64,000 bases of DNA from Chitinophaga pinensis (GTDB taxonomy: Bacteria > Bacteroidota > Bacteroidia > UKL13-3). The DNA lies in assembly GCA_945870425.1 (NCBI GenBank), contig CAMBSD010000006.1, positions 69,735 to 133,734 of the forward strand, read 5' to 3'. Positions 22,608-61,470 of this stretch are shown piece by piece; position 1 is the stretch's first letter, and each line of letters starts with the position of its first letter. The notes under the pieces were generated by a model that saw only the letters and a program-made list of their open reading frames with translations, ran no database searches and was not told the DNA's origin. Both the position numbers and the translations under genes were made by a program.

Positions 22608-25600
22608 ATGAAAGATAACATACTTTTCATACTGTTTTTCTTTTTTGGCTATAGTGCCCAACCTCAAATTCTTAAGATAACTCCTACCAATCCAACTTCG
22701 GATGATTCAGTAACCATTGTCTTTGATGCAAGAGAAGGTAACAAGGGCATCATTAATTTCAATGGCCAAGTGTATATTCATTGTGGTTTGATTACTACTC
22801 AAAGTGGCAATGGCAGCGATTGGAAAAATGTAGCAACTAAATGGGCCAAGGATGATACCCTTGCTCTTATGAACAGAATAGATAGTAATAGGTATTGGAT
22901 TGGTTTTAATATTCGCAAGTTCTTTAATGTTTTACCTACACAACAAGTACTCAGGCTTGCCATGCTCTTTCGCAATGTGGATGGAAGCAAAGTAGGTCGC
23001 TCTTCTTCTAACAATGATATTTTTTATGATATCAATATTCTTACGCCAGGCAATTATGTATCGCATAGCATCGGCCCTGATGGCCTATCCATAAAAGCAA
23101 GTAATGGTGATTTGCAAATACAAAAATATGTTTCTGATATTATTAAAGTGTCTTTTATTCCAACTGGAATTGCATCTAGAGATAGTAATATCTTATTAGA
23201 TAATAATAGCACATCTGCCTTTGCATCAGTAGATGACTATTTAAGCTATTTACTTCTTAAAACAACTTCTGGAACTACCCTTAAAATACAAAAATATCCT
23301 TTACGCATAAGTTATTTAGATAAAGGATTAACGACTAAATTTACCGAACGAACAGGCATCTATTACCAATATGGAAAATGGGGTGTTTCGTTTGATGTGA
23401 GTGGCACTGAAGCCTTTTATGGCACAGGCTCTCGAGCTATTGATTTAAATCTAAGAGGCAAATCATTTAGTACATATAACCAAGCCAATTATGGCTATAG
23501 TTTTGGCACACAAACACTCAATATCAATGTGCCTTTTGTACTTTCGAGTAATTTGTATGGCTTGTTTTTTAATAATTTTAGTGCAGGTAATTTTAACATA
23601 GCCAATACAGATAGCACATTGCTTCAATACGCATGTGATACCTTGCCATTAAGTTATTTCATCTTTGGAGGAAATTCAATGGGAAGCATCATTAACAAAT
23701 ATACCAATCTCACCGGAAGGCAGCCTTTGCCGCCACGTTGGGCATTGGGTTATATCCAATCCAAATATGGTTACCAAAATGAAACGGAAGCTAGAAGCAT
23801 TGTATCTCAATTGCAGACTGCCAATTTTCCTTTGGACGGACTTGTTTTAGATTTGTATTGGTTTGGCTCTGCTTCAAAAATGGGCAACTTAGATTGGGAT
23901 AGAAGCAAGTGGACGAATCCTGTTAAAATGATGAGTGATTTCAGGCAATCAGGCGTTAAAACCATTTTGATTACTGAACCTTATTTTACCACACAAAGTT
24001 CAAACTATGCTGCAGCAAATTCTCTTAATCATTTTGCCAAAAACAAAAGCAACCAATCTTATGTGATGAATGATTTTTGGGCAGGCTCTGCCTCATTGCT
24101 CAACATATACAAATCCGATGCCCAAGATTGGATGTGGCAATTTTACAAGTCACGTATGGACGAAGGAGTAGATGGTTGGTGGAGCGATTTGGGTGAGCCA
24201 GAAAAACATCCTGATGACATGATGCATACCAATGGAAAAGCCCGTTTGGTGCATAACCTATATAGTTTTTATTGGGCAGATTTACTCAAAAGAAAATTTG
24301 ATAGTATTTATCCCAATAAGCGTTTGTTTAACCTCATTCGTTCTGGGTTTGCAGGTAGTCAAAGGTTTGGTGCTATTCCTTGGAGTGGCGATATACAAAG
24401 AAGTTGGGATGGTTTAAAAGCACAAGTGCCTTTGATGTTAAATAGTAGCATGAGTGGTTTGGCCTATATGCACAGCGATGCTGGAGGCTTTACTGGAGGT
24501 GGACAGAATGAAGAATTGTATGTGCGTTGGTTACAATTTGCTGTTTTTACTCCCATCATGCGAGCCCATGGAGAAGGTGTTCCTTCCGAGCCAGTTTTTT
24601 ATTCAAGCAATGCACAAGCCATCATCCGAAATTTTGTCAATCTTCGATATTCGCTTTTACCTTATAACTATTCTTTGGCTTATAGCAATAATATGGAGGG
24701 TAAACCACTAGCAAGGTCAATGAGTTATTTTGAACCTCAAAACGCGCTAACTTATAACCTTTCAGACCAATATTATTGGGGTGATAATATCCTTGTTGCT
24801 CCGGTATTGCAGTCGGGTCTTAACAGCAGGAGTGTATATTTGCCTGCTGGTGAGTGGTACGATTATTTCAACAAAACATGGGTTGATGGAGGGCAAACTA
24901 TCAACAGAAATGTAAGTTTAAATGATATTCCATTATACATGAGAGGAGGGTCTATCATTCCCATGCAAAACCCAAGAATGAGTACTGATTTTATGAGCAC
25001 TGATACCTTGAATTTTGTATATTATTATTCTGAGAAGTTGTCATCGTTTGAAGGTTTGGTCAATGGAAAAACAAGGGTATATGAGGATAATGGATATGAT
25101 ACCAAGCCACAGATGGGACTCATTGATGTGTATAGTGCTGGAAATGCTTCAGTGGCTAAAAAAATAGATATCCAAATCACAACAGACTCTGCTGATTTAT
25201 ACTTTACAAAGCCACTTAAGTTTATAGAATTTAAAGTCCAACGAGTAAATAAGAACTACCGAAATGTGGTATTAATAAAACCGAATGGAAGCCTATTATG
25301 CCATTTGAAAAGAGTGTTTAGCATGAATGATTATCTTTCAACTGATTCTTCTTTTTATTATGATGGCAATGCCAACTTACTATTGCATTTTAATTGGTAT
25401 CCTAAAATAGCACTTACTATTTCTATTAATGATGATTCAACTTCAAGCACCAGTAACTTGAATAAAGTTCCTGATTTTGCTATTGAAAAAGTGTATCCAA
25501 ATCCAGCCAAAGAAAAATTGAATATTGATTTGCAAATAATTGAAAATGCAAATTATAAGATGGAATTGTTTAACATGAAAGGGTTGATGGTTTGCGATGC

Positions 25601-25730
25601 TGAATACTTGTTATCAAAGGGATTTCAATCACATGAATTTATTTTGCCAAATGGATTGAATAAAGGAATTTATCTTTTCAAAATCACTTCTGATAATACT
25701 GTTTTTGTAAAGAAAGTGATAATCGAATAA
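22608..25730 (+). CDS. glycoside hydrolase family 31 (alpha-glucosidase/alpha-xylosidase-like) with a T9SS type A C-terminal sorting domain
   Basis: Has a nucleophile-region motif (DGWWSDLGEPE) and an acid/base region (HSDAGGFTGG..RWLQFAVFTPIMRAHGE) typical of GH31. The C-terminus (YPNPAKEKLNIDL...IYLFKITSDNTVFVKKVIIE) matches the Por secretion tail. Confidence 0.75.
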   Translation: MKDNILFILFFFFGYSAQPQILKITPTNPTSDDSVTIVFDAREGNKGIINFNGQVYIHCGLITTQSGNGSDWKNVATKWAKDDTLALMNRIDSNRYWIGFNIRKFFNVLPTQQVLRLAMLFRNVDGSKVGRSSSNNDIFYDINILTPGNYVSHSIGPDGLSIKASNGDLQIQKYVSDIIKVSFIPTGIASRDSNILLDNNSTSAFASVDDYLSYLLLKTTSGTTLKIQKYPLRISYLDKGLTTKFTERTGIYYQYGKWGVSFDVSGTEAFYGTGSRAIDLNLRGKSFSTYNQANYGYSFGTQTLNINVPFVLSSNLYGLFFNNFSAGNFNIANTDSTLLQYACDTLPLSYFIFGGNSMGSIINKYTNLTGRQPLPPRWALGYIQSKYGYQNETEARSIVSQLQTANFPLDGLVLDLYWFGSASKMGNLDWDRSKWTNPVKMMSDFRQSGVKTILITEPYFTTQSSNYAAANSLNHFAKNKSNQSYVMNDFWAGSASLLNIYKSDAQDWMWQFYKSRMDEGVDGWWSDLGEPEKHPDDMMHTNGKARLVHNLYSFYWADLLKRKFDSIYPNKRLFNLIRSGFAGSQRFGAIPWSGDIQRSWDGLKAQVPLMLNSSMSGLAYMHSDAGGFTGGGQNEELYVRWLQFAVFTPIMRAHGEGVPSEPVFYSSNAQAIIRNFVNLRYSLLPYNYSLAYSNNMEGKPLARSMSYFEPQNALTYNLSDQYYWGDNILVAPVLQSGLNSRSVYLPAGEWYDYFNKTWVDGGQTINRNVSLNDIPLYMRGGSIIPMQNPRMSTDFMSTDTLNFVYYYSEKLSSFEGLVNGKTRVYEDNGYDTKPQMGLIDVYSAGNASVAKKIDIQITTDSADLYFTKPLKFIEFKVQRVNKNYRNVVLIKPNGSLLCHLKRVFSMNDYLSTDSSFYYDGNANLLLHFNWYPKIALTISINDDSTSSTSNLNKVPDFAIEKVYPNPAKEKLNIDLQIIENANYKMELFNMKGLMVCDAEYLLSKGFQSHEFILPNGLNKGIYLFKITSDNTVFVKKVIIE

Positions 25731-39327: not shown

Positions 39328-39391
39328 AGAATAGTATAAAAGGCAATAAGTAATAATTTTAAATAGTAAGAAGAAATAATAGAGAATAATT

Positions 39392-41360: not shown

Positions 41361-41402
41361 GATTGATATAAATGTGTTGCTTGTTAAGCCACACAAATTA
41401 AT

Positions 41403-42032: not shown

Positions 42033-42061
42033 TATAGTTTAAGTACAGCAAATTATTCACA

Positions 42062-43369
42062 ATGGAACACTCAGAAATTACAATAAGAGAAGAAAAATAT
42101 GTCATTACAAGTGCCAATAAAAAATGGGCATTTGGATTGATGATAGTAGGTGCATTGCTTGCCTTGATTGGATTTTTAACTTATCATCCTCATGTTGAGG
42201 GATTAGGAGAACACGATTTACATCATTTGGTTACCAAAAGATTGTTGGGTAACATTTTAATCGATGGTTATTTCTTTTTCTTAATTGCTACGTGTGCTAT
42301 CATTTTTGTTACTATATCCCAATTAGCAAATGCAGGTTGGTATGTGGCCATCAGAAGAATTCCTGAAGCCATGAGCCGTTTTATGCCTTTTGGCGCATTG
42401 GTTATTATTTTGGTATCGGTTTTTGGTATTGGTTACCTTTACCATTGGGCGCATGAAGGCATTATGGATCCTAATGCTCCTAATTTTGATAAAGTTTTAG
42501 CTGGAAAAAGTTGGTACCTAAATAAACCATTTTTCTTTGTTAGACTCATTGGTTTTACTACTATTTGGATTCTATTCGCAAGAACAATTCGTAAAAATTC
42601 TATTAACGAAGATTCTGTGGGCGGTCTATTAAACTTCAATAAAAATGTTAAAACATCTGCTGCTTACTTAGTAATATTTGGATTCTCATTCGCTATGTTC
42701 ACTTGGGACATGATGATGAGTATTGATCCACATTGGTATTCTACCATTTTCTGGATTTACAACTTTGCTACAGGATGGGTAAGTGCAATCAGTATTATTT
42801 ATTTATTTACTTGGTACTTGCGTGGCAAAGGTTATTTAAACGTAGCCAATGACGACCACAACCATGATTTAGGTAAGTTCATGTTTGCCTTCTCAGTGTT
42901 CTGGACATACATGTGGGTAGCTCAGTTCTTACTGATTTGGTATGCCAACATTCCTGAAGAGGTTGAATACTACAAAAACCGTATGTTCGGAACTTATGTA
43001 GGTAACTTCTATGTAAACATCTTCTTAAACTTTATTGTGCCTTTCTTCGTGTTCATGCGCAGAGGTGCAAAACGTAATCCAATATCAGGTGTTATAGTTG
43101 CTTCTTTGATTTTGTTAGGTCACTGGAATGATGTGTATTTAATGGTTATGCCAGGCGTGATGAATTTAGCTGTTAAGCCTAATGCTGAATACCCATTAGG
43201 TATTATGGAGATTCCTAGCCAAGGTGTAGGCTTAATGGAAATTGGTTTCCTTGCCTTGTTTGCAGGTGGATTCTTATTTGTAGTTTTCAAAGCATTGGCA
43301 GCTGCTAATTTGTATCCTACTCGTCACCCATATATATACGAAAGTGCTATGCACGATACAGGTGTATAA
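42062..43369 (+). CDS. actF: alternative complex III subunit ActF (NrfD-like membrane subunit)
   Basis: 435 aa polytopic membrane protein and last gene of the cluster. Confidence 0.7.
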   Translation: MEHSEITIREEKYVITSANKKWAFGLMIVGALLALIGFLTYHPHVEGLGEHDLHHLVTKRLLGNILIDGYFFFLIATCAIIFVTISQLANAGWYVAIRRIPEAMSRFMPFGALVIILVSVFGIGYLYHWAHEGIMDPNAPNFDKVLAGKSWYLNKPFFFVRLIGFTTIWILFARTIRKNSINEDSVGGLLNFNKNVKTSAAYLVIFGFSFAMFTWDMMMSIDPHWYSTIFWIYNFATGWVSAISIIYLFTWYLRGKGYLNVANDDHNHDLGKFMFAFSVFWTYMWVAQFLLIWYANIPEEVEYYKNRMFGTYVGNFYVNIFLNFIVPFFVFMRRGAKRNPISGVIVASLILLGHWNDVYLMVMPGVMNLAVKPNAEYPLGIMEIPSQGVGLMEIGFLALFAGGFLFVVFKALAAANLYPTRHPYIYESAMHDTGV

Positions 43370-43610: not shown

Positions 43611-46292
43611 TTGTTATTTGTTTTGGTAGCGTTGTGTCTTTCAAACCTAGCTTTTGCAACCCACTATAGGGCGGGAGAAATTACCTACAAGCAGATTGGT
43701 CAAAATACCTATAGGATATCTATATTTACATACACAGATCAAACCCAAGCTGCGAATCAATTTACGGAAAGTATTAAAGTGGATTTTGGTGACAACCAAG
43801 CGGCAGTGGTGCAAAGGTCGAAGGTAGAAATTATGAATAATGCTTTGTTGCCAAATGACCCAGGCTATCCGGGATTTCCCGTACAAAGAAATACCTATAT
43901 AGTAGATCATACTTACAAAGGCAACACTACTTTTACGATAAGCATCATTGATCAAAACAGGGTAGGAGGCATTGCCAATCACCCCGGAATAGAAACAGAT
44001 AGGTTCCCATTTTATGTTGAAACGGTTTTAACCTTAAATAGTGGTTTAGGTTTTAATCAGTCACCCATATTGTCTGTTCCACCCATAGACCAAGGTTGTG
44101 TAGGTCGAATATTTACGCATAACCCAGGTGCATATGACCCAGATGGAGATAGTTTGAGGTATGAAATTCGAGCTGCACAAGTTCAGCGTAATTTCCCCAT
44201 GCCCAAATATGTTACACCTTTTTCATCTAATTTTTTTAGTATTGATGAAGCTACAGGACAGTTGACTTGGGATGCACCCACCATAACGGGCATTTACAAT
44301 ATTGTAATTCGTATTTATGAATATAGGAGAAGGGTTTTGTTTGGATATGTGGATAGAGACATGCAAATTTATATTACAAATTGCAATAACAATCCTCCTA
44401 AAGTTCCGCAATTGGCGGCCACTTGTATTGATGCCAAAGAGTTGCTTCAACAAAACATCACGGTAACGGATATTGATGCTACTCAAAAGCTCACTGTATC
44501 CTATTTTGGAGGTCCCTTTTTGCAACCCAATAGTCCTGCAAGTGTATTGCCAAATATACCAAGTGGTAGTTCCCCTCTCACGTTTCAGTTCCAGTGGAGA
44601 CCCGCTTGTTCTTCTATTCGCTATCGCCCATTTGATGCCATTTTTAAGGCTGCAGATAATGGCTCACCAACCCCATTGGTGGATATGAAAAATTGGAGTA
44701 TCAAGGTGATTGGTCCAGCACCTACGAATGTAAAAACCAAGCTGGATAGCAATGGAATACTTCTTACCTGGAATCGTGACACTTGTGTGAGGGCTTCTGC
44801 TTATAAGATTTTTAGAAGGGTGGATTCTTCATATTGGAACCCTAATAAATGTGAAACAGGAGTTTCAGCTTCAGCGGGTTTTGTATTGATTGATTCATTG
44901 CCAGGGCTTAATTCGATTCAATATTTTGATAACCAAAAAGGAAAGGGATTATCACCACTTATTAGATATTGTTATAGGATTACAGCAACCTATAATCCTG
45001 CCAACGATCAAGGTGGTTTTGTTTTTAATGAAGTGGCTGAAAGTTATGCAAGCATTGAAGTTTGCAATATGATAGAAAGAACCAAGCCTATAATCACCAA
45101 TGTGAGTGTGCTGAATACACAGACTACAAACGGAAGTATTTATTTGCGTTGGTTAAAGCCCATATCAATGGATAGTATCTTATATCCACCGCCTTATCAA
45201 TATAGAATTAAACGTAGTGTAAACGGAATCGATTCATTTAATAATTTGAGCCAAGTTTTTACTTATAACTCTTTTAAAGATTTGTCTGATACAAGTATTA
45301 TTGACAGCAATATCAATACAATCGCAGACCAGTTCTATTATAAGGTGGAGATATACTATTCAAAAAATGGAGGCTTTAAATTTGTGGAGGAGAGTATTTA
45401 TGCAGCATCAATTAAAGCAATTGTTTACAATACTGACAGACGTATAAAGATAAGCTGGACAGTGGATGTGCCATGGGTAAATCAACAATACACCCTTTAT
45501 AGAAAGCTTCCTCTATCATCTACTTTTGATTCATTAATTACTACAGAAAAATTAAGTTATACTGATTTGAATTTGATAAATGGTCAAGAGTATTGTTATT
45601 ATGTGAAGAGCACGGGTAGTTATAACCAAATTTATCTTCCTCAAATACTGATTAACAATTCTCAAATTATTTGCGGTGTTCCTATAGATACAGTTCCTCC
45701 ATGTCCGCCACCCATAGCTTTGGTTTCACCATGTGATAATCCAAGTATTTCATCCGTTGTTATTAATTGGCAATTTCCAATTGATTGCGGAAGCGATATT
45801 AAGAACTTCAAATTATACTATGCCGAAACAAACAAATCTACTTTGGTTTTAATTGCAGATAATATTGATAAAAATGTTAGAACCTATACAGATACAAGTG
45901 AACGTGTGAGGTTATCAATTGCTGGTTGCTATGTGTTAACAGCACTTGACACCAATGGGAACGAGAGCACAAAATTGAACAAACTTTGTATAGACAATTG
46001 TCCATCTTACACCCTTCCTAATGTTTTTAGCCCTGGTTCAGACAATGTTAATGATTTGTTTAGGCCTTTCCCTTATCGCTTTGTTGATAAGGTTGATATG
46101 GTTATTTATAACAGATGGGGGCAAGAGGTTTTCATCACAACAAACCCTGATGTAAATTGGAACGGCAAAGACCAAAATTCAGGAAAAGATGTGAGTGGTG
46201 GGGTTTATTTTTATATTTGTGATGTGTTTGAAAGGTACTTAGATGGTACAAGAAAACGCAGTATTCACGGTTCAATAACAATTTTAAGATAA
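43611..46292 (+). CDS. large secreted protein with a T9SS type B (gliding-motility-associated, CHU_C-like) C-terminal sorting domain
   Basis: TTG start followed by a signal peptide (LFVLVALCLSNLAFA). The C-terminus (PNVFSPGSDNVNDLF...VIYNRWGQEVF...NWNGKD...GGVYFYIC) matches the type B CTD consensus. Confidence 0.6.
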   Translation: MLFVLVALCLSNLAFATHYRAGEITYKQIGQNTYRISIFTYTDQTQAANQFTESIKVDFGDNQAAVVQRSKVEIMNNALLPNDPGYPGFPVQRNTYIVDHTYKGNTTFTISIIDQNRVGGIANHPGIETDRFPFYVETVLTLNSGLGFNQSPILSVPPIDQGCVGRIFTHNPGAYDPDGDSLRYEIRAAQVQRNFPMPKYVTPFSSNFFSIDEATGQLTWDAPTITGIYNIVIRIYEYRRRVLFGYVDRDMQIYITNCNNNPPKVPQLAATCIDAKELLQQNITVTDIDATQKLTVSYFGGPFLQPNSPASVLPNIPSGSSPLTFQFQWRPACSSIRYRPFDAIFKAADNGSPTPLVDMKNWSIKVIGPAPTNVKTKLDSNGILLTWNRDTCVRASAYKIFRRVDSSYWNPNKCETGVSASAGFVLIDSLPGLNSIQYFDNQKGKGLSPLIRYCYRITATYNPANDQGGFVFNEVAESYASIEVCNMIERTKPIITNVSVLNTQTTNGSIYLRWLKPISMDSILYPPPYQYRIKRSVNGIDSFNNLSQVFTYNSFKDLSDTSIIDSNINTIADQFYYKVEIYYSKNGGFKFVEESIYAASIKAIVYNTDRRIKISWTVDVPWVNQQYTLYRKLPLSSTFDSLITTEKLSYTDLNLINGQEYCYYVKSTGSYNQIYLPQILINNSQIICGVPIDTVPPCPPPIALVSPCDNPSISSVVINWQFPIDCGSDIKNFKLYYAETNKSTLVLIADNIDKNVRTYTDTSERVRLSIAGCYVLTALDTNGNESTKLNKLCIDNCPSYTLPNVFSPGSDNVNDLFRPFPYRFVDKVDMVIYNRWGQEVFITTNPDVNWNGKDQNSGKDVSGGVYFYICDVFERYLDGTRKRSIHGSITILR

Positions 46293-50541: not shown

Positions 50542-53500
50542 ATGGAAAGAGAAAATTACAGAATCTGTACTAATTCAATTTTAAAAGTTTTTTTTAGTTT
50601 GTTGATTCTTGCTAAAATTGGTTTGAACTCATCCAATGCGCAAAATATATATGGATTAGAGCCCATTCAAGTGGTAGGCCAAATGAATGGTTATTCAACA
50701 GCGGCTGGCTCAAATTCTAGCTACAGAAAGGTTTCAGTGACATCGGGAAATCCTACAGATGGAAGAGGACAATGGTTTAAAACCTATAATGTGGAATCAT
50801 CAGGTGGAGATTTTACACCAAGAAATATGACAGGTGGAGGAGGTTCAGGATTTTTATTTATTTCCGGCCCGAGTAGTAATCGATTTGCCAATAAGTGGGT
50901 TTTTTCTGGTGTTGGTCAAGGTGCCGTGAATGTTGTAAATACATGTAACGCCTATAACAGTGGTAATGACATGGGTTTGAATATGAATGCTGCAGGGTAT
51001 TATAGTTTTGTTTTTAATGATGTTGGATATACTGTTAGTAATGCAAAATATTATGTAGCATACACCAACTCTGCACCCATAAATGTTGCACGTACAGCCC
51101 AAAGGTTAAATTTTGACAGAAGCGCTCAAATTGATATCAACACAAGTGCTAGTCCATCTTTAAATGAAAATATCTATGTAAGATACACTACCTCGGCAGA
51201 TTTTTCAAGTGCAAATAGTAGCAATGTTGTTCAAGCTACAGCTAGTGGGAGTTCATGGAGTGCAAGTATTCCTGCCCAAGCAGCAGGCAGTACTGTAAAA
51301 TATTTGGTGTTTAGCTCAACAGTTTCATTAAACACTTTGAATTCAATGTCAGAACTTGATAAATCACTTTCAACTTTAAAGTATGATGATAATTCAGGTT
51401 CAAATTACAGCTACACATTAACAAATGCATTTGTTTCAGTGGCTAGTGGAAATTTTAGTGACACTGCCACATGGGGAGCAAGTCAATTATTTTCTGGTGC
51501 ATCTTATACGATATCTAATTCACATGTAGTTGCTTTGAATCAAGATATGACTGTTTCTAACCTAACAATTAATTCAGGTGGGACTTTCAGTAATAGTAGT
51601 TTTACTTTAAACGTTATGGCTAATGGAAGCCTTAATAACAATGGAGCCTATACCGTTACTTCGGGTAGATTAAATTTTGCAGGTGCCGGATCCCTTGGTG
51701 GTTCGCAAGCATGCACCTTGAATGACTTAACCATAAATTCGGGTACCGTAACCTTAAGTCAGGTGCCTACAATTAATGGAACATTGCTTATTAATGGGGG
51801 TAATGTGAGTGCTGCTCCAATATATGGTAGCGCATCTACATTGGCATACAATATTACATATAATCGATTCAACGAGTGGAATGCCAATGGCATCGAAAGT
51901 ATTGGAATCACTGCTGGTTATCCAAATAATGTTGAGATAAGAAGTGGTACCTTTGAGATTGCAAATTCGAGCACGCTTGCTAGGGCGCTAAACGGAAGTT
52001 TAACTATTAATCTGGGCGCTACATTTAATATTAGTTCAGCTAATATGACCCTGACTATAGGAGCTGATTTAATAAATAATGGAACTTTTACTGCTAGTAA
52101 TGGAACAGTAGTATTCCCTAGCAATTGTGCTATCAGTGGTAATGCGTCAGTGTTTAATAACATTAGTCTAAATGGTAATACAACTTTAAATAATGTCACA
52201 GTTAATGGAATTTTAAATTTTAATACAGGTGCTTCCATTGTTTCAGGTACACTTAACTATGGGTCATCCTCTACCCTGAAATACAATCTATGCCCTTCTT
52301 TGACTGGCTCGGAATGGCCAACTAATGCGGGGCCATTTAATATAACCCTTAATAGTAATGCAGGGTCACTTACCTTGAATGGCAGCAGAACCATCAATGG
52401 AAGCTTGAATATAGGCAGTGCAAGCACACTTGATGTGAGTAGCTCACATTATACTCTTTCCATAGGTAATAATGGTTCTATCGTAAATAGTGGTACTTTT
52501 AATGCTCAATCAGGATTAGTTGTCTTTGCAGGTGCAGCCAATGTGACAGGAACCATTTCATTTAATGATGTAAGCATCGCTGGGGGTGTGAATTTTGGTG
52601 CTAGCTCTACGGTAAATAATAGATTAACTATTTTGCCTAATGGTTATGTGAATACAAACCCTTGCTCATACGCAGCTGGTTCAACCTTGGTTTATAACAA
52701 TGGTTCAACCTATGTGGCAGGATCAGAATGGTTGTCAGGGATTACAACTGGAGCAGGAGTTCCCTTTCATGTTCAAGTAGGAAATGGAAATGCCAATTCA
52801 GCTTTGTCCTTAGGCAATGCAGCATACACATTAAGAGGTAATTTGACTATTGATACAAGTGCTGGTGCAGGATTATTTATGGGTAACACCTCATCTGTAT
52901 TAAACATATCTGGTGATTTTATCAATAATGGAAACAATGCGGCCAATCTAAATCCTGGTGCAGGAAGAATAAATTTTAATGGTGTTTCTACTCAAAATAT
53001 TGGTGGTAGTAATTCTAATTCGTTAGCGTTTAGCTTCAATTCAATTACATTAAACAATGCAAATGGATTGGTGTTAAACAAGGCTATTAGTATAGGTAGC
53101 AGTGGTATGTTAACTCTGACAAATGGCATCCTTACTACAGACATTACAAACATAATAATCATTAACAATACTTCTATATCATCTATAAGTGGCGCAAGCA
53201 GTATAGCTTATATTAATGGCCCAATTTCAAGAGCCTTGCCTTCAAATTATACTACTTCGAGCTCATTTTTATTTCCAATTGGAAAGGGTTCAAATTATAT
53301 GCCTTTAACTTTGGTAAATCCTAAAACAGGAACTGGCTCAATTATTTTAACAGCAAGCGTTGAAAATACAAACAGTAATGGTTCTGTAGGTTCAATGTTA
53401 TCTGCCATTAGCAATACTGAATATTGGCGCCTAACAGCAAGTGGTAATTTTATTAATAGCTCTATTTCATTAACCAGGAGTGCTAGCAATGGAATATACA

Positions 53501-56500
53501 ATGCTATTGCCAAAAGTAACAGCTTGAATGGTATATACAATTCAATAGGAGGAACAGTTTCATCAAACTCAATCTTGAATTCAGATACCACAAGCGGCAA
53601 TGATCTATATTTTGTTTTAGGTAGTTTATCTGTAACTACTATTAATGCAGATGGAGGTGTTGTTGCTAATCCAGGTGCTGGTAGTTCGGGATATTTTGGT
53701 AGTACCATTACCATCTCAGGAACCCAATTGGCAGGCATCACAGAGTTAAGAATCGGTGGAGCAAATGGAAGGATTATCCCTATTGTGAGTCAAACAGATA
53801 CAAGCATCACTATTTTTGCACAGGATACAAGCGGAGCGATTTATGTATCTAATGGCATAAGCAGTGTAACAAGCAATGAAACTTATTTGCACCTTGGTTA
53901 TATTTCAAATTCTAATGGTGATTGGAATACATCAAGTACCTGGTTGGGTAATACCATTCCTCCACTCACTTCATCAGTTTATGTTAAGGACTCCGTTGAT
54001 TTATCAAATACTTTGGTGCAAAGTAATTTAAACATACTGTCTTTGGGTAAGCTTAATATAAATAATGGAGATACCTTAAACATAAATAATTTGTCAAATG
54101 CAGGTATGGTATATGTTAATGGGGTGCTTTCAATCAATGACTATTCAACTAATTCATTGAATGGAATAATTACTTGTTCAAATGATGGTGCTATTAATCA
54201 ATATGATACTTTATCAAATCTTGGAACTATAGACATGCAGGGTTTGCTTAAGATTCTTTCATCAGGAAGGATTTTAAATAATGGTCCAATCTATGCTAAT
54301 ACGTCCAATTTATTTTATTCAACAGGTTCAAGTTATATTAGAGGTAAAGAGTGGAGTGCCATATCTGGCAACGGTTATCCAAATCATATTACCATAAACA
54401 ATGGTTCGACACTAAATATTGGAACACTTAGTTCTGCGATTGCATTGGCAGGAAACTTAAATTTAGGAGACGGTAATGGTGCTGGTAATTTGAATATGCA
54501 ATCCGCCAATCAACATATTCAGATTAATGGTAATTTAAATATTGGCTCTAATAGAGATACAAGCACTTTAACGCTGTCGAACAGCATCGGTGGTGATATA
54601 AAAGTAGCTGGTAATTGGATAAGAAGTGCAAATGGAAAATTTGTGAATAATACCCGAGCTGTTTTCTTTATTGGTTCAGGTTTATCTGAAATAAATGGGA
54701 GTGGTGGAGCCATATTTGATTATTTCATTAGTCAAAAAACTTCTTCAGCTTCCATTAGGTTGATGTCGAATGTTACTGTTTTGGCAAGTGCTTCTGGCAA
54801 TGCTATTAGTTTATCATCAGGAACAGAAGTTGATTTGAACGGGTTTAGTTTGAATCTGACCAATTCTACTTCATCAAATATTTTGGTTGATGGAGGTAAT
54901 GCATCATTTACTGGAATTGTTGGTTCATTGATAAACTTTACAAATGGCGTTAAAACAATTACTTCAAGTAATACAGGTAGGCTGACATTTGGCAGCAATG
55001 TAAAATTGATTGCCAGTAATGGAGGGATAAACTTTGGCGTGGATTTAACTATTGTCAATGGATCTTTGCTAATTAATTCAGGTGGGTATGTGTTAAATAA
55101 TTCATGTATTTATGGCAATGGTTCAACATTGGTTTATAATACAACAGGAACATATACAGCAGGAACAGAATGGGTTTCTAACCTTTCAAGTGGAACGGGT
55201 GTTCCATATAATGTCACAGTGAGTTATAATACAAATCTTAGTTTTGGTAGCACCAATCAATATAGACAGCTTAGTAATGATATCACAATTGCTAATGGTG
55301 CTACCTTAATACTTTCAAACTTGGCAGGGGGTGATTTAAGAATAAAAGGAAATTGGAAAAACGACAATATTACTGTTGGACAAGGATTGATACATAACAA
55401 TCGTGCAATCATTTTAAATGGCGTTGCCAACCAAAGCATGACCAACGAATCAGATGTGATTACAATTGGTTATTTGTTATTAGATAAACCTAGTGGAACG
55501 GCCATTTTGAATGATAGTTTAACATTAAACGGTACTTCTGGAGCTACAGCGCAAGTGTTACAATTAAATAATGTAGGATCTTTGGACTTAAATGGTAATG
55601 TCCTAACCATTGCGGGTAATCAAGTAAGGTCAATTCTTTGCAATGCTTCAAGGTTAATTACTGGTTCAAGCGGCAGTCAATTGAATTTTCCTTCAGGAAC
55701 AGGCGTAGCATTAATAGAAGGTGCTGGCACATTAACACTAGATTCAAATATCATTGTGTCGATATACAAAGGCGTGAATTTTGGTTTAAATAAGACTACC
55801 ATTAAGGGCACCTTAAGTATATATCCTGGTTCGTTTTGCAGCACCAATTCACCACTATATGGTGCTAATGCTAATTTGATTTACAACACTGGAAATTATT
55901 CAACAAGTAATGAATGGACCTTGACGAGTGTACCACATATTATTTACCTGAATTTAACCAATTCTTCAAATGCATTAAGTCTTTCAGGAAATAAAATAAT
56001 ATCGGGTATTCTAAACATAAATAGTGGAAATGTTCTTACAAATAATGATACATTGTTTATGAGTGCTGGATCCACATTGAATAGAATTGGTGGCTATATA
56101 ATAGGTAATTTGGCAAAATATTTTGATGTATCATCTATCAATACTAATACATTTGAAATTGGAACTTCATTAGGGTACACGCCCATTACCATTAGCTTCC
56201 CAAGCATTAATACTCCTGGTTTTGTAACTTGTAGGTCAAATGATAGCGATTACGCTTTTATTGCTAGTTCGGGTTTGAAACCAACCAAAAGTGTGAATCG
56301 AAATTGGCTGATTGCAAGTAAAGATGTTTCACCTATAAATTATAATGTCCTTGCAAATTATTTAAGTACAGATAACGACAATGGTGTTTCATTTAATTTT
56401 TATAAGGCTTCAATTTATAGTGGCTCTGCATGGTCATCAAAACTGAATCCCACATTTAGCCCAAACAGTACCACGAGTAGTTTCAGTGGAATTAGTTCAT

Positions 56501-57123
56501 TTGGTAATTTGCAAATTGGAGAAGATAGTACCTCGAGTTCATCACTGACAAGTATTTCAATAAAGGCATATTTGCAAGGGCTTTATATCGGAACAAGTAC
56601 CATGAATTCAGCTCCATTTAATGCTGATGGGGTAACTCCAAATTCTATTTCAGACACCATTCAAATTGAGCTGCATGAAGCAAACGCGCCTTATTCATTA
56701 GTAAATTCGACAATTGACACCATTAATACTTCGGGTTTAGCAAATGTGAATTTCCCTAATATAGTAATTGGAAACTCGTATTATGTTGTTTTGAAACATC
56801 GTAATTCTGTGGCTACATGGAGTTCGGTTCCGGTTTTGTTTTCGGCCACTGGAACCTCATTTGATTTTAGTACTTCGGATGCCCAAGCTTATGGAAATAA
56901 TCTCACAGATGATGGTAATGGCGTATATTTGATTTATGCAGGTGATATTAACCAAGATGGTTCAGTTGATTTTAATGATTATCCTGATTTGGATATCGGT
57001 AGTTCAAATGGAGATTTAGGTTATTTACCGTGTGATTTAAATGGTGATGCCTCTATAGATTTTAACGATTATCCTTTGATTGATTTGAATAGTAGTAACG
57101 GAATTATCGCACTTACTCCTTAA
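50542..57123 (+). CDS. giant secreted repeat protein (2193 aa) with a beta-helix/adhesin-like Asn/Gly/Ser/Thr-rich repeat body and a C-terminal dockerin-like shared module
   Basis: Signal peptide present. Several copies of a module of roughly 110 aa recur, of the form GSTLxYN...AG.EW......G.P.N..V.......L.....Y.L.G.L.I. The last ~190 aa are about 60% identical to the C-terminus of the next protein and include DINQDGSVDFNDY and DLNGDASIDFNDY. Confidence 0.6.
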   Translation: MERENYRICTNSILKVFFSLLILAKIGLNSSNAQNIYGLEPIQVVGQMNGYSTAAGSNSSYRKVSVTSGNPTDGRGQWFKTYNVESSGGDFTPRNMTGGGGSGFLFISGPSSNRFANKWVFSGVGQGAVNVVNTCNAYNSGNDMGLNMNAAGYYSFVFNDVGYTVSNAKYYVAYTNSAPINVARTAQRLNFDRSAQIDINTSASPSLNENIYVRYTTSADFSSANSSNVVQATASGSSWSASIPAQAAGSTVKYLVFSSTVSLNTLNSMSELDKSLSTLKYDDNSGSNYSYTLTNAFVSVASGNFSDTATWGASQLFSGASYTISNSHVVALNQDMTVSNLTINSGGTFSNSSFTLNVMANGSLNNNGAYTVTSGRLNFAGAGSLGGSQACTLNDLTINSGTVTLSQVPTINGTLLINGGNVSAAPIYGSASTLAYNITYNRFNEWNANGIESIGITAGYPNNVEIRSGTFEIANSSTLARALNGSLTINLGATFNISSANMTLTIGADLINNGTFTASNGTVVFPSNCAISGNASVFNNISLNGNTTLNNVTVNGILNFNTGASIVSGTLNYGSSSTLKYNLCPSLTGSEWPTNAGPFNITLNSNAGSLTLNGSRTINGSLNIGSASTLDVSSSHYTLSIGNNGSIVNSGTFNAQSGLVVFAGAANVTGTISFNDVSIAGGVNFGASSTVNNRLTILPNGYVNTNPCSYAAGSTLVYNNGSTYVAGSEWLSGITTGAGVPFHVQVGNGNANSALSLGNAAYTLRGNLTIDTSAGAGLFMGNTSSVLNISGDFINNGNNAANLNPGAGRINFNGVSTQNIGGSNSNSLAFSFNSITLNNANGLVLNKAISIGSSGMLTLTNGILTTDITNIIIINNTSISSISGASSIAYINGPISRALPSNYTTSSSFLFPIGKGSNYMPLTLVNPKTGTGSIILTASVENTNSNGSVGSMLSAISNTEYWRLTASGNFINSSISLTRSASNGIYNAIAKSNSLNGIYNSIGGTVSSNSILNSDTTSGNDLYFVLGSLSVTTINADGGVVANPGAGSSGYFGSTITISGTQLAGITELRIGGANGRIIPIVSQTDTSITIFAQDTSGAIYVSNGISSVTSNETYLHLGYISNSNGDWNTSSTWLGNTIPPLTSSVYVKDSVDLSNTLVQSNLNILSLGKLNINNGDTLNINNLSNAGMVYVNGVLSINDYSTNSLNGIITCSNDGAINQYDTLSNLGTIDMQGLLKILSSGRILNNGPIYANTSNLFYSTGSSYIRGKEWSAISGNGYPNHITINNGSTLNIGTLSSAIALAGNLNLGDGNGAGNLNMQSANQHIQINGNLNIGSNRDTSTLTLSNSIGGDIKVAGNWIRSANGKFVNNTRAVFFIGSGLSEINGSGGAIFDYFISQKTSSASIRLMSNVTVLASASGNAISLSSGTEVDLNGFSLNLTNSTSSNILVDGGNASFTGIVGSLINFTNGVKTITSSNTGRLTFGSNVKLIASNGGINFGVDLTIVNGSLLINSGGYVLNNSCIYGNGSTLVYNTTGTYTAGTEWVSNLSSGTGVPYNVTVSYNTNLSFGSTNQYRQLSNDITIANGATLILSNLAGGDLRIKGNWKNDNITVGQGLIHNNRAIILNGVANQSMTNESDVITIGYLLLDKPSGTAILNDSLTLNGTSGATAQVLQLNNVGSLDLNGNVLTIAGNQVRSILCNASRLITGSSGSQLNFPSGTGVALIEGAGTLTLDSNIIVSIYKGVNFGLNKTTIKGTLSIYPGSFCSTNSPLYGANANLIYNTGNYSTSNEWTLTSVPHIIYLNLTNSSNALSLSGNKIISGILNINSGNVLTNNDTLFMSAGSTLNRIGGYIIGNLAKYFDVSSINTNTFEIGTSLGYTPITISFPSINTPGFVTCRSNDSDYAFIASSGLKPTKSVNRNWLIASKDVSPINYNVLANYLSTDNDNGVSFNFYKASIYSGSAWSSKLNPTFSPNSTTSSFSGISSFGNLQIGEDSTSSSSLTSISIKAYLQGLYIGTSTMNSAPFNADGVTPNSISDTIQIELHEANAPYSLVNSTIDTINTSGLANVNFPNIVIGNSYYVVLKHRNSVATWSSVPVLFSATGTSFDFSTSDAQAYGNNLTDDGNGVYLIYAGDINQDGSVDFNDYPDLDIGSSNGDLGYLPCDLNGDASIDFNDYPLIDLNSSNGIIALTP

Positions 57124-57124
57124 A

Positions 57125-60100
57125 TTGTTCAAAATGAAAAGAACACTTCTTTTAGCGATTAAATTTTTTAGTGTTTGTTATCTATCTGCTCAGGTTTTGT
57201 CCGTGTCGGATAGTATCTTATATGCTAGATATTATAAACCTTTTTTGAACGACAATAAATTTTTTATTTCATCTTTTGATGGATTAGGAGATAATCATTT
57301 TCCAGAATTTAAAAGGGATTGTTCAAACTTAAATGGTGCTATAACCATTGGTGCAAATGCTGTTTGGTTTGGAGGAACTCTTGGTCTTAATCTATCAGGT
57401 AGTGGTATCAATAAATTAGGTATTTGGGACTCTGGAGCCATAAGAGGTACTCATAAAGAATTTAAAAATAGAGTGACTCAAATGGATGGATCTTCAACAC
57501 TAAGTTCACACTCTAATGGCGTTGCAGGAATAATGATGGCTTCTGGAGTACTACCTAATGCAAAAGGGATGTCTAATCAAGCAAATTTAAAAGCTTGGGA
57601 TTTTAATAATGATAGAGCAGAGATGTTAGCAGCTGCGAGTGGATTGTTGATTTCAAACCATTCTTATGCAAATTTAGCTGGTTGGTATAATACAGGTGGT
57701 ATCCAATATTGGCTTGGTGATACAACACTTAACCAAGATAATGATTGGAAGTATGGATTTTATGATAGCAGAACAGCTACTTGGGATAGTATATCATATC
57801 GTTTTCCTTATTACTTAATTGTGAAGGCAATTGGCAACGATAGGGGTATTAGTGTTCCGCAAGGTACACCTCATTATTTTTGGGATGGCTTTAATTGGAT
57901 TTATAGTAGTCGTATCAGAAACAATGTTGGTCCATATGATTGTATTGTTACATATGGTACTTCAAAAAATATTCTTTCAGTTGGAGCAGTTGATGTTTTG
58001 CCAAATGGATATGTTGCTCCACCCTTAATAATGCACTCAGGAAGCAGTTGGGGCCCAACAGATGATGGTAGAATTAAGCCAGATCTGGTTGCTGGAACGC
58101 CTACTTCAGTTACTCCAAGTAGTACCCATGATTCGGCATACCAATTTTTGGGGGGTACTTCCATCGCATCTGGTGCATCCTCTGGTTCATTGTTATTGCT
58201 TCAAGAACATTATTTTAACCTAAAAAATAGATATATGAGATCATCTACTTTGAAAGGTTTGGCTATTCACACCGCAAATAGATGTAAAACTAATTTTGGA
58301 CCTAACTATGAGAGTGGTTGGGGGTTACTAAATATCAGTAAGTCTGTTCAAGTTATAAGTGATTCTAACAACAATATAGTCAACGAGTATTCATTGAATA
58401 ACAATGATACATTTAATATGATGGTATATGTTAATGGGGTTGATACGGCTAAAGCAACCATCTGTTGGACCGACCCCCCTTCAGTGGTTACAGCGCCTGC
58501 TTATAATGATACGACTCCCAAATTGATAAATGATTTAGACTTAAGATTACTTTCATTGTCAAACGGACATGAGTATAAACCTTATATTTTGAATCCATAT
58601 AATCCAAGTGCAGCCGCCACTAATGGAGATAACTATAGAGATAATGTTGAACAAATTTATGGTATGGGATTGCCTCAAGGATTTTATAATTTAAGAGTTA
58701 CCCACAAGCGAAATTTGCAAAATAACCAAGCTCAAGAATTCTCCTTACTTAGTTCAAATTTTGCAACAACTTCTAGTATTATTACTGTTAGTAATTCTCC
58801 TACATCAAATAATAATATTTATAAAGGAACTAACAATGCTGTTTTATATAAAATAGATGTTTCTGTGCTTACTTCAGCTACTGCTCTTAATGAATTGCAT
58901 TTTACGAGCTCAGGTTCTTATACAGCAAGTGATATTAGTAATTTTAAAATTTGGTATCACAATGATTCTAATTTTAATTCAGGTACTCCTCAACTTTTAT
59001 CAACCCTTACAAATAATTTAGGTGGAGGTTTTCATAATATTACTGGCCTTAACAAAATTCTTAATTTAGGTTCTAGTTATATTTTTATAACAAGCGATAT
59101 TCCATGTGCTTCTTCAGCTAACTCCATAGCGATTAATGCGATTTCGACAAGTGATATAAAATTTGTTTGGGGTAGTGTTTCTGGAACTGGTTTCACCTCA
59201 AGTAGTATCAATATTGTATCTTCTGATATTGGTGCAATAGCAACTCCATCAACCAGTATTTGCATGGGTGATGCCGTTACATTGATTGGCATAGGTGCAT
59301 CAAGCTATAGCTGGGACAATGGCATTGTGGATGCAGAAGCATTTGTTCCAACTTCAACAACATCTTATAAAGTTATTGGCACTGATGATTATGGCTGCGA
59401 CTATGATACAATCATTACGATTGTTGTCAATAGTTTGCCTAATGTGGGAATCTTAGTCAATCCTTCAATTCATGTTTGCCTTGGTTCCAATGTTACTTTG
59501 TCAGGCACAGGAGCCAGCTCTTATCAATGGGGTGGAGGAATTACTAATGCAACATCATTTATACCTTCAAAATCTCCGTCAAATTATTTTGTTATTGGAC
59601 TTGATTCTATAACTGGCTGCCAGAATGTTGATAGTGTTACGATATATATTAATTCACCCATTAAAGTAGGTGCATCAAATTTCGCTATGTGTGCAGGAGA
59701 TAGTGTTGTACTATCTGCTTCGGGTGGCGTGAGTTATTTGTGGAGTCCTTCGTTTTCATTAAGTGCTTCGGTAGGTTCAAGTGTAACTGCTACCCCACAA
59801 AACACAACTACTTATATATTAACCGGGACGGATACAAGCGGTTGTGTCACCACTGATTCAATTTCCATTTTTGTATTTAATTCTGCTCCTGGAAATCCAT
59901 CTAGTTTTTTATCATCAAATATTTCGAATGAATCATTTGACTTAGATTGGACCCCAACGGCAAACACAGTGAATTATAGTATTGATGTTTCAACAGATCC
60001 CAATTTCAATAATATTTTAACTTCGTACAATGGATATAGTTTAACATCAACCCATACCTCAATTTCAGGTTTGACGGCAGGTACAACGTATTATGCACGT

Positions 60101-61024
60101 ATTAAGTCGGTTAACTCGTGCTTTAATTCTCTCTATGTGGTTGACACGATTCTTCTAAAACCAAATCCACCTTTGTCTTTAAATCATACTTCCGTAAACT
60201 TGAATGATTTCACTGCTAATTGGTCAACTTCGAATGGAGCCTCTTCCTATTTCTTAGATGTTTCCTTAAACAGAAATTTTACATCACTTGTGGCGGGCTA
60301 TAACTCACTTCTAGTAACTGGAACGAGTAAATTTGTAAATGGTTTAGCTATGTTCACAAAATACTATTATAGGGTCAAAGCTGTTAATCTTTCTGGCATT
60401 TCAAGCTATTCCCTTGTTGATTCACTTAATACATTGTCCTTGGATGTTCATTTATATCTAACTGCCTATTTGGAAGGATTGTATCTAGGTGCAAATACCA
60501 TGGTTGCATCTCCGTTCAGTGCTGATGGGGTTTCACCAACCAATATTGCTGATACTATTACGGTTGAATTGCATGAAGATTTTCCTCCATTTTCCATGGC
60601 CTACTCAACACAAGCCCTATTGGAAACTAATGGTTTTTCTGATGTTTTGTTCACTGGAACAGGCGCGAATGGAAATAATTATTATATAGTGGTGAAGCAC
60701 AGAAATTCTATTGTTACGTGGAGTGCAATGCCAGTTTCAATGAGTAATGCAGGTGTTTCTTACGACTTTAGTTCTTCACCAACCCAAGCTGCGGGAGATA
60801 ATATGAAAGATGATGGCACTGGGGTTCTTCTCTTTTATTCAGGAGATATAAATCAAGATGGCTCAGTTGATTTTAACGACTACCCAGACATAGATATTGG
60901 AAGCTCGAATGGCGATTTAGGTTATTTAGCTACCGATTTGAATGGAGATTCATCGGTAGATTTTAATGATTATCCTTTAATCGACTATAACAGCAGTTTA
61001 GGTATTATTGAAATGACTCCTTAG
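57125..61024 (+). CDS. S8 subtilisin-like serine peptidase (1299 aa) with SprB-like repeats, FN3-like domains and the same dockerin-like C-terminal module
   Basis: Catalytic triad contexts are present: LGIWDSGAI (Asp), HSNGVAGIM (His) and GGTSIASGASSG (Ser). Three tandem repeats of ~70 aa (SSYSWDNG...GCDYDTIITIVV) resemble SprB repeats, and two FN3-like modules follow. The C-terminal 190 aa are paralogous to 56540..57120. Confidence 0.7.
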   Translation: MFKMKRTLLLAIKFFSVCYLSAQVLSVSDSILYARYYKPFLNDNKFFISSFDGLGDNHFPEFKRDCSNLNGAITIGANAVWFGGTLGLNLSGSGINKLGIWDSGAIRGTHKEFKNRVTQMDGSSTLSSHSNGVAGIMMASGVLPNAKGMSNQANLKAWDFNNDRAEMLAAASGLLISNHSYANLAGWYNTGGIQYWLGDTTLNQDNDWKYGFYDSRTATWDSISYRFPYYLIVKAIGNDRGISVPQGTPHYFWDGFNWIYSSRIRNNVGPYDCIVTYGTSKNILSVGAVDVLPNGYVAPPLIMHSGSSWGPTDDGRIKPDLVAGTPTSVTPSSTHDSAYQFLGGTSIASGASSGSLLLLQEHYFNLKNRYMRSSTLKGLAIHTANRCKTNFGPNYESGWGLLNISKSVQVISDSNNNIVNEYSLNNNDTFNMMVYVNGVDTAKATICWTDPPSVVTAPAYNDTTPKLINDLDLRLLSLSNGHEYKPYILNPYNPSAAATNGDNYRDNVEQIYGMGLPQGFYNLRVTHKRNLQNNQAQEFSLLSSNFATTSSIITVSNSPTSNNNIYKGTNNAVLYKIDVSVLTSATALNELHFTSSGSYTASDISNFKIWYHNDSNFNSGTPQLLSTLTNNLGGGFHNITGLNKILNLGSSYIFITSDIPCASSANSIAINAISTSDIKFVWGSVSGTGFTSSSINIVSSDIGAIATPSTSICMGDAVTLIGIGASSYSWDNGIVDAEAFVPTSTTSYKVIGTDDYGCDYDTIITIVVNSLPNVGILVNPSIHVCLGSNVTLSGTGASSYQWGGGITNATSFIPSKSPSNYFVIGLDSITGCQNVDSVTIYINSPIKVGASNFAMCAGDSVVLSASGGVSYLWSPSFSLSASVGSSVTATPQNTTTYILTGTDTSGCVTTDSISIFVFNSAPGNPSSFLSSNISNESFDLDWTPTANTVNYSIDVSTDPNFNNILTSYNGYSLTSTHTSISGLTAGTTYYARIKSVNSCFNSLYVVDTILLKPNPPLSLNHTSVNLNDFTANWSTSNGASSYFLDVSLNRNFTSLVAGYNSLLVTGTSKFVNGLAMFTKYYYRVKAVNLSGISSYSLVDSLNTLSLDVHLYLTAYLEGLYLGANTMVASPFSADGVSPTNIADTITVELHEDFPPFSMAYSTQALLETNGFSDVLFTGTGANGNNYYIVVKHRNSIVTWSAMPVSMSNAGVSYDFSSSPTQAAGDNMKDDGTGVLLFYSGDINQDGSVDFNDYPDIDIGSSNGDLGYLATDLNGDSSVDFNDYPLIDYNSSLGIIEMTP

Positions 61025-61032: not shown

Positions 61033-61470
61033 TTATCTCAATTTTTTGAAAAAGTTTTTCATCAACATTGTAGCCTCGATAGCCATGATGCCATTCACTA
61101 TTTCTGTTTTTGGATGAAGCAAATTTCCTGATTTGCTAAAACCTCTTTTTTCATCTGATGCACCATAAACCAATGTGCCTAATTGTGACCAAAATATAGC
61201 ACCTGCACACATTATGCATGGTTCCAATGTAACATACATAGTGCATTCGTTCAAGTACTTTGCACCAAGGTAATTGGCTGCTGCTGTAATGGCTTGCATC
61301 TCAGCATGAGCAGTTACATCATTTAATCTTTCAGTAAGGTTGTATCCTTTTCCAATTATTTTGTTATCTGAAACAATGATGCAACCTACAGGTACTTCAT
61401 TTTCTTCGCAGGCTTTTTCGGCTTCTTTTAAAGCCATGTTCATAAAATATTCGTGTGAAAATAGTTCCAT
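61033..61470 (-). CDS. tadA: tRNA-specific adenosine deaminase
   Basis: 145 aa with the CDA zinc motifs HAEMQAI and PCIMCAG. Confidence 0.8.
   Translation of the reverse strand: MELFSHEYFMNMALKEAEKACEENEVPVGCIIVSDNKIIGKGYNLTERLNDVTAHAEMQAITAAANYLGAKYLNECTMYVTLEPCIMCAGAIFWSQLGTLVYGASDEKRGFSKSGNLLHPKTEIVNGIMAIEATMLMKNFFKKLR

Follow-up and report, generated by a model that had tools for sequence, protein, structure and literature searches.

The stretch analysed here, referred to as the window, comprises 64,000 nucleotides (nt) of Chitinophaga pinensis DNA (contig CAMBSD010000006.1), and two adjacent plus-strand genes within it encode a giant beta-helix repeat protein and a serine protease of the S8 family (Table 1). 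Both proteins begin with a signal-peptide-like N-terminus, which is a hydrophobic segment ILKVFFSLLILA...SNA/QN in the giant protein and MKRTLLLAIKFFSVCYLSAQ in the protease, and both end in the same C-terminal module of about 185 residues. This module is predicted to combine a beta-sandwich with a dockerin-like part, an arrangement known from the X-module-dockerin (XDoc) dyads by which cellulosomal scaffoldins are anchored. The window also encodes two proteins with recognized C-terminal domains (CTDs) of a type IX secretion system (T9SS). As the initial annotation of this DNA had stated, a glycoside hydrolase family 31 (GH31) enzyme (22608..25730) carries a type A CTD, matched by Por_Secre_tail, and an 893-residue protein (43611..46292) carries a type B CTD, matched by CHU_C.

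Table 1. Features of the two module-bearing genes, in window coordinates (aa, amino acids; ORF, open reading frame; Ig, immunoglobulin)
Feature	Position	Strand	Description
Giant beta-helix repeat protein gene	50542..57123	+	ORF, 2193 aa, adhesin-like, secreted (signal-peptide-like N-terminus)
Beta-helix segment, giant protein aa 1226-1733	54217..55740	+	right-handed parallel beta-helix, modelled
C-terminal XDoc-like module, giant protein aa 2001-2193	56542..57120	+	~130-aa beta-sandwich, then ~60-aa dockerin-like part; hmmsearch 3.9e-90
First EF-hand-type Ca loop, giant protein	56944..56979	+	DINQDGSVDFND
Second Ca loop, giant protein	57034..57069	+	DLNGDASIDFND
S8 (KP-43-like) serine protease gene	57134..61024	+	1296 aa, ATG start; module at C-terminus
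Subtilase catalytic region and KP-43-type C-terminal barrel	57425..58700	+	phmmer to 1wmd_A, E 5.8e-20; triad motifs
Cys-containing Ig-like repeats, Ig_7 / 'CHU_C-associated' type (protease)	59192..59899	+	sub-threshold, Ig_7 20.7 bits vs cut-off 27.3
Two fibronectin type III (fn3) domains (protease)	59882..60454	+	PF00041, E 4.5e-11, two stretches
C-terminal XDoc-like module, protease aa 1104-1296	60443..61021	+	
First Ca loop, protease	60845..60880	+	DINQDGSVDFND
Second Ca loop, protease	60935..60970	+	DLNGDSSVDFND

The C-termini of the two proteins were compared by BLASTP, which gave 58% identity across 215 aa (E = 3e-84), and by a global end-to-end alignment of the 192-aa modules, which gave 60.4% amino acid and 64.9% nucleotide identity. 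Homology along the whole length of the tails with about 60% amino acid identity, as first proposed, was therefore confirmed, whereas the accompanying estimate of about 70% nucleotide identity was too high. Third codon positions of the two modules were 46.9% identical. The pair reflects an old divergence under purifying selection, in agreement with the earlier statement that it is not a recent duplication. Six-frame hmmsearch detected no third module copy in the window. Among other proteins (L and P numbers are our own handles), the module of the giant protein showed 98% identity with the P0007 tail and 77% identity with the tail of the P0110 orthologue, and about 20 of 207 modules of other proteins were nearer to each window copy than the window copies were to each other. 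A recent duplication and a private pair were both rejected on these grounds, third-codon identity being 47% and about 20 foreign modules being closer to each copy.

Each of the two window proteins contains both D-x-N-x-D-G-x-V-D-F-N-D loops, with the calcium-ligand positions kept, so that the two dockerin-spaced loops noticed at first inspection were verified. In an alignment of 38 modules, the Asp/Asn ligand positions 1, 3, 5, 9, and 12 of both loops (D135/N137/D139/D143/D146 and D165/N167/D169/D173/D176) were invariant or at least 90% conserved, and the sequence after the loops read Y-P-x-(L/I)-D, with a proline. The signature of the family is YY-V-KHRN-ETWS ... GD-NQDG--D--D ... D-NGDG-VD--D ... 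P-end. Of the two halves, the dockerin half was the better conserved, which is the pattern to be expected were all paralogues to bind a single partner. With the protease module as query, 103 relatives were retrieved, in all of which the module was terminal; its start lay at a constant 182-187 aa before the C-terminus, and its ending was ...G-(I/V)-(I/L)-x-x-(T/R/H)-P. In Ignavibacteria and a few others, a Lys-rich hydrophilic tail of 10-60 aa extended past the terminal proline (L029:3478-6708, L045:1-4422, L049:1-6585, P0190, and P0196), and because such tails follow some modules, a free C-terminal proline is not obligatory. The module was internal in a few copies.

When the family profile was searched against all sequences of the Protein Data Bank (PDB), dockerins ranked first. 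The best match was the dockerin of C. cellulolyticum Cel5A (2vn5_B, E = 5e-5), in an alignment that covered both loops with one 1-residue gap and a dockerin-typical loop-to-loop spacing, and more than 15 further dockerin chains ranked below it. Furthermore, the Pfam threshold for Dockerin_1 was passed by 11 of 61 full-length members scanned, and relatives above it included P0104 (39.9 bits), P0148 (33.2 bits), P0225 (26.3 bits), and the Flavobacterium protein of L039 (29.1 bits). The suggestion that the module is dockerin-like was thus upheld by the profile search and by these relatives. Like type I dockerins (PF00404), the module contains two copies of a 12-residue EF-hand-like loop in which D/N occupies positions 1, 3, 5, 9, and 12, spaced as in dockerins; it differs in that its dockerin never stands alone and is always fused to a specific sandwich with the YY-V-KHRN-ETWS motif. 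This sandwich half was covered by no Pfam or NCBIfam model in the 61 full-length members. At E <= 1, the window modules matched neither FG-GAP nor thrombospondin type 3 (TSP_3) in Pfam, the latter having been raised as a candidate at the outset, and EF-hand_8 appeared at E = 0.14-0.27. Non-cellulosomal dockerin-like modules were reportedly described by Peer et al. in 2009. Two relatives, P0103 and L048:733-4428, stop right after the sandwich (...YYIV-KHRxS-ETWS...FDF..) and lack the dockerin half; they may be truncations or a sandwich-only variant.

The AlphaFold model of the protease module (mean predicted local distance difference test [pLDDT] 86.6; predicted template modelling score [pTM] 0.82) placed a confident Ig-like sandwich of about 130 residues against a dockerin-like part with pLDDT of 60-80, and the whole of the 190 residues in this model resembled the X-module plus dockerin dyad of type II dockerins. 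A Foldseek search with the model returned seven XDoc chains at the top. In the XDoc dyads of C. thermocellum CipA (2b59, 3kcp, 4fl4, and 5g5d) and A. cellulolyticus ScaA (4wi0), an Ig-like sandwich likewise directly precedes the dockerin and packs on it to form a single rigid unit, as is predicted for the module. The two differ in their hosts, which are Firmicutes for XDoc but Bacteroidota and Ignavibacteria for the module; in their carriers, since XDoc sits on a scaffoldin and the module on hundreds of different cargoes; and in their partner, as XDoc binds a type II cohesin whereas none was found for the module in the window or among the neighbours of the 59 loci described below. On the predicted structure, the module is best regarded as a two-part XDoc-like dyad of about 185 aa with a divergent dockerin, rather than as a disguised CTD.

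The initial annotation had taken the module to be private to the two proteins, marking them as a specific co-sorted pair, and had called cohesin-dockerin-like assemblies rare in Bacteroidetes. Neither view was supported by an exhaustive profile search of 1.84 billion cluster representatives, of which 14,235 matched at E <= 1e-3 and 3,169 matched at E <= 1e-30: the module belongs to a family of at least 3,000 clusters, with about 20 of 207 foreign modules closer to each window copy, and, given this family size, dockerin-like tails are not rare in the lineage. The best 150 cluster matches came from proteins of 139 to 3,600 aa, in which the module was almost always terminal, and in 281 of 303 domain hits (93%) it ended 0-3 residues from the C-terminus. 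A scan of one genome per species identified 59 loci. Those with a complete module all belonged to Bacteroidota (Bacteroidia, Chitinophagaceae, Flavobacteriales, Saprospiraceae, and Cytophagia) or Ignavibacteria, although the scan patterns were subfamily-specific, so the distribution may be underestimated and the phyletic restriction may partly reflect the patterns. One carrier, Flavobacterium sp. 3HN19-14 (L039), is an isolate. Several genomes held many module copies, and tandem module genes were common elsewhere (four in L032, three in L058, and also L008, L024, L030, L031, L034, and L041); the two-gene arrangement of the window is a common pattern. A module fragment, P0054, was filed under the name of a cyanobacterial metagenome-assembled genome (Dolichospermum sp.), all other named matches being Bacteroidota, and this assignment is probably a binning contaminant.

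The cargo domains of the 61 full-length members comprised Ig_7 'CHU_C-associated', fn3, cadherin-like, PKD, GEVED, Laminin_G_3, and endonuclease I domains, together with NCBI 'choice-of-anchor' domains, which are named for co-occurring with alternative C-terminal sorting signals. Such domains are typical of T9SS cargo, and the cargo is typical surface or extracellular material. A group of small members of about 250-266 aa (L060:8941-10789, L061:9081-10783, L038:746-6471, and L043:4309-6579) consisted of a signal peptide, a piece of about 50 aa ending in ..LTQGFQQP, and the module. Each of these stand-alone members was directly preceded, on the same strand, by a gene for a secreted protein with a conserved 'APQG(I/F)PYQAVAR' N-terminal domain and a variable C-terminus, which was Lcl_C, Kelch, or a Peptidase_S74 chaperone. 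Fusions of the module to Lcl_C also exist (P0197 and P0085), and the module may have a functional link to lectin-like or fibre-like proteins.

The passengers of the two window modules were characterized. The giant protein had no match in Pfam or NCBIfam, and phmmer against the PDB was likewise empty; the predicted model of aa 1226-1733 was a right-handed parallel beta-helix, consistent with its first description as beta-helix-like. TRF and self-BLAST left its internal repeats unresolved, and they were visible solely as multiple high-scoring segment pairs to homologues. The protease ORF, listed at 57125..61024 (+), adjoins the giant gene on the same strand. Its start is more likely the ATG at 57134, 10 nt past the TAA stop of the giant gene, where public gene calls also place it; thus, the ORFs stand as first described (50542..57123, 2193 aa, and 57125..61024, both +) except that the protease, given as 1299 aa, more likely has 1296. 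Because the protease start lies only 10 nt after the giant's stop, the two genes are probably co-transcribed. Scans for sigma-70 promoters and terminators gave matches no better than in shuffled sequence. The public copies of both proteins and of their relatives were all deposited as 'hypothetical protein'.

The N-terminal half of the protease matched the KP-43 subtilase 1wmd (phmmer, E = 5.8e-20) and contains the catalytic triad in subtilisin order, namely D99 (WDSG), H126 (SHSNG), and S343 (GGTSIA). Pfam and NCBIfam searches at E <= 1 gave no Peptidase_S8 match for this protein (57134-58813), whereas PF00082 was present in all of its 120 closest homologues (41-65% identical). For the N/S/T-rich lineage of this protease, the family model gives a false negative, and the assignment of the protease to S8 holds. 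The catalytic region is followed by weak Ig_7-like repeats, then by two clear fn3 domains, and then by the module. SprB-type repeats, which the protease had been thought to carry, were not matched in Pfam; Ig_7 alone was found there, below its threshold.

We examined the relation of the module to T9SS signals. In the T9SS literature, CTDs are divided into types A, B, and C, no two of which are related in sequence (PMC10202324). The module resembles these CTDs (type A, PF18962/TIGR04183; type B, PF13585/TIGR04131; type C, ChiA-like) in its extreme C-terminal position on Sec-dependent multidomain proteins, in the phyla concerned, and in the classes of cargo, but it measures about 185 aa against about 75-100 aa, has calcium-binding loops, and shows no detectable sequence similarity to types A and B. 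No type A CTD match was obtained for the module with Pfam or NCBIfam at E <= 1, at which the GH31 enzyme matched as a positive control, and hhalign against nine type A CTDs from the window and the loci gave a probability of 0.3%. Against the window's own type B domain, CHU_C, the hhalign probability was 0.08%, and Pfam and NCBIfam again gave no match. NCBIfam at E <= 1 likewise gave no type C (ChiA-like) match in the modules or the 61 members, assuming that the library contains the type C model. A divergent type A or B CTD was rejected by Pfam, NCBIfam, and hhalign alike, which confirms the earlier statement that the module is neither. Searches of the full-text literature on dockerin with T9SS, Flavobacterium, or Bacteroidetes retrieved neither a description of the module nor a paper connecting T9SS cargo with a dockerin-like domain.

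The module replaces T9SS CTDs at the same position on homologous passengers. Of the 120 homologues nearest to the catalytic region of the protease (41-65% identity), 99 listed PF18962, and a small CTD hidden Markov model found 96; three instead ended in the module, and none had both. Among 15 homologues of the giant beta-helix, about seven had a type A CTD as their last domain, and in no case did the module take that place; one of those seven, P0274, is 38% identical over 589 aa. Type A CTDs are therefore interchangeable with the module on homologous passengers. Across the family, a type A CTD occurred in none of 308 module-bearing proteins, compared with 21 neighbouring ORFs of the same loci. 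Because of its terminal placement, constant length, exclusivity with CTDs, and replacement of CTDs, the module most likely acts, throughout the family, as an address tag for multidomain proteins of Bacteroidota and Ignavibacteria that are exported by Sec and are located at the surface or outside the cell. The same four features, the first of them seen in 93% of domain hits, argue against the view that it is a calcium-stabilised domain that binds a ligand (glycan, lipopolysaccharide, or substrate) or is purely structural, its terminal position being incidental. That view would account for the conserved surface-type motif KHRNS-ETWS and for the ties to lectin-like Lcl_C domains by fusion and neighbourhood, but we regard it as quite improbable.

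An address tag could be read in more than one way. The module might be a further class of T9SS C-terminal signal, read by the translocon or by a dedicated shuttle, with a dockerin half that is merely a calcium-stabilised structure and has no cohesin-like receptor. Much of the evidence above fits such a signal: the module is strictly C-terminal in signal-peptide proteins; in its complete form it occurs only in Bacteroidota and Ignavibacteria, where neighbouring genes carry Por_Secre_tail; it is exclusive with type A CTDs in the family (0 of 308) and among the protease homologues (99 with PF18962, three with the module, none with both), and about 7 of 15 giant beta-helix homologues have type A CTDs in its place; and its cargo includes Ig_7 'CHU_C-associated' and 'choice-of-anchor' domains. 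Moreover, T9SS already accepts the unrelated CTD families A, B, and C (PMC10202324), and no partner gene is conserved beside the module genes, which is equally true of type A CTDs with their common PorV. On the other side, the module is unrelated in sequence to type A (hhalign 0.3%) and type B (0.08%) and matched no NCBIfam T9SS model; it is about twice the size of a type A CTD, with a dockerin rather than an Ig-like sandwich at the extreme C-terminus; the Lys-rich tails of 10-60 aa and the internal copies show that a free C-terminus is dispensable; both calcium loops are strongly conserved, which is hard to account for in a mere signal; and the phyletic restriction may partly stem from the subfamily-specific search patterns. 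On balance, a signal of this kind without docking appears rather unlikely, although it overlaps with the reading that follows, as one module could serve both roles.

The explanation we favour, at a probability of roughly 45%, is that exported proteins dock in XDoc style, and in a calcium-dependent manner, to a surface receptor that they have in common, their export presumably running via T9SS. According to this model, the signal peptide would bring the protein to the periplasm, as its N-terminus suggests, and the protein would then reach the surface, presumably through the T9SS that the organism uses for its other cargo. There, by analogy with XDoc-cohesin pairs, the calcium-loaded dockerin half, stabilised by the sandwich, would tether the protein non-covalently to a shared receptor whose gene lies elsewhere in the genome. 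Both window proteins, the beta-helix adhesin and the protease, would thus be displayed at the same surface sites as many other cargoes and not as a private pair. The window is in keeping with such a route, as its two module proteins have signal-peptide-like N-termini and a terminal module, and it encodes type A and type B CTD proteins as well. A more specific version can be put forward tentatively, in which the XDoc-like dyad would be a fourth, hitherto unrecognised class of T9SS sorting and anchoring domain, would substitute for A/B/C CTDs in thousands of proteins from Bacteroidota and Ignavibacteria, and would retain these proteins at the surface by calcium-dependent dockerin-style docking instead of covalent attachment to anionic lipopolysaccharide (A-LPS).

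Several observations weigh against docking. The window copies scored 12.0 and 10.9 bits on the Pfam Dockerin_1 model (PF00404), below its 22.9-bit threshold. In real dockerins, the helices after the calcium loops contact cohesin, and in the AlphaFold2 model of the module these helices are very short (residues 153-156 and 182-186, pLDDT 60-80), while the post-loop stretches contain Pro and Gly; the short, Pro-containing post-loop helices and an identity of 12-16% set the module apart from XDoc dyads. Profile matches that reached into the X module were marginal (2b59_B, E = 0.0096; 3kcp_A, E = 0.032; 12-16% identity). Since XDoc chains are almost the sole sandwich-plus-dockerin chains in the PDB and AlphaFold was trained on them, the XDoc match of the model points to a shared architecture and not to proven common descent. 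The search for a partner was also negative: no window ORF of at least 200 aa had a Pfam match to cohesin (PF00963); when Pfam families were counted in the 100 ORFs closest to the module genes of the 59 loci, neither Cohesin nor PorP/SprF was among those shared by two or more ORFs (best 25 of 151 families, so that a single cohesin may have gone undetected); and BLAST clustering of the 398 ORFs of these loci found no non-module family in more than four loci, those being Por_Secre_tail. In addition, a docking tag alone leaves unexplained how a 2193-aa protein crosses the outer membrane, and the function of the module is inferred for every member of the family.

The commonest family among the 100 nearest neighbours was Por_Secre_tail, with 10 ORFs. 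Because no neighbour gene is conserved at the 59 loci, a receptor, if one exists, would be encoded elsewhere and shared. In this respect the putative receptor would resemble PorV, which is shared by type A CTDs and not adjacent to their genes, and would be unlike the adjacent PorP/SprF of type B CTDs. The cohesin partner that the initial annotation had offered as an option was thus found neither in the window nor beside the 59 loci, which bears in particular on a classical cohesin-dockerin assembly, in which the module, independently of T9SS, would build a cellulosome-like complex on a cohesin-bearing scaffoldin or anchor. The similarity to dockerins and XDoc would suit such an assembly, and cellulosome-like sets have been proposed for Cloacimonadota, another Gram-negative-type phylum, where 'Ca. 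Stygibacter' is proposed to combine dockerin-bearing enzymes with a CTD-bearing scaffoldin (PMC8542988). As in the window, peptidases and hydrolases with signal peptides carry dockerins at the C-terminus in that bacterium, which is of Gram-negative type and has T9SS-type CTDs; it has an identified cohesin-repeat scaffoldin, whereas none was found for the module, whose dockerin sits in a fixed XDoc-like dyad. As the module's cargo is mainly adhesin-like, Ig/fn3, and lectin-like rather than a coherent enzyme set, the helices with the cohesin-recognition residues appear degenerate, and the export route would be left unexplained, we consider a classical assembly improbable.

Beyond the genes discussed so far, the window consists of ordinary Bacteroidota chromosomal DNA (35% GC), with genes for PolA, LptD, 2-oxoglutarate dehydrogenase, and an AcrAB-type pump as well as a cytochrome/Fe-S/NrfD cluster. 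In this cluster (34920-43369), a gene for a multihaem cytochrome c is accompanied by genes for a molybdopterin/4Fe-4S protein, an NrfD-like membrane protein, and another cytochrome c, in a layout resembling that of an alternative complex III operon. Three ORFs had no Pfam family at the thresholds used: 25733-27229 (-), 498 aa; 42062-43369 (+), 435 aa; and 133-798 (+), 221 aa. The gene directly upstream of the type B CTD protein is the 435-aa ORF, which had no match to PorP/SprF, a family whose genes often accompany type B CTD genes. Public gene calls alone place a 145-aa gene of the dCMP/cytidine deaminase family at 61033-61470 (-), between the protease and PIG-L genes; it is shorter than the 150-aa minimum applied to ORFs here.

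Taken together, these data establish that the two tails are homologous and belong to a large family that lacks a Pfam or NCBIfam model and consists of sandwich-plus-dockerin dyads with intact calcium-loop signatures. A family of 185 aa with so sharp a signature merits a domain model of its own. If the module is only a non-cellulosomal dockerin whose partner is unidentified, the finding would be a useful, if unsurprising, annotation. Prediction of T9SS cargo relies on type A, B, and C CTD models; should the module act as a tag for sorting or anchoring, these models would overlook a family of at least 3,000 sequence clusters, which flags a large blind spot in the annotation of T9SS cargo. The proteins concerned, from abundant freshwater and soil Bacteroidota and from Ignavibacteria, comprise lectin-like and large adhesin-like proteins together with proteases and nucleases. 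If calcium-dependent docking holds true, the XDoc solution, a sandwich-stabilised dockerin for surface anchoring, would not be confined to Firmicute cellulosomes, and the module would provide a testable handle on surface placement without A-LPS ligation in T9SS phyla.

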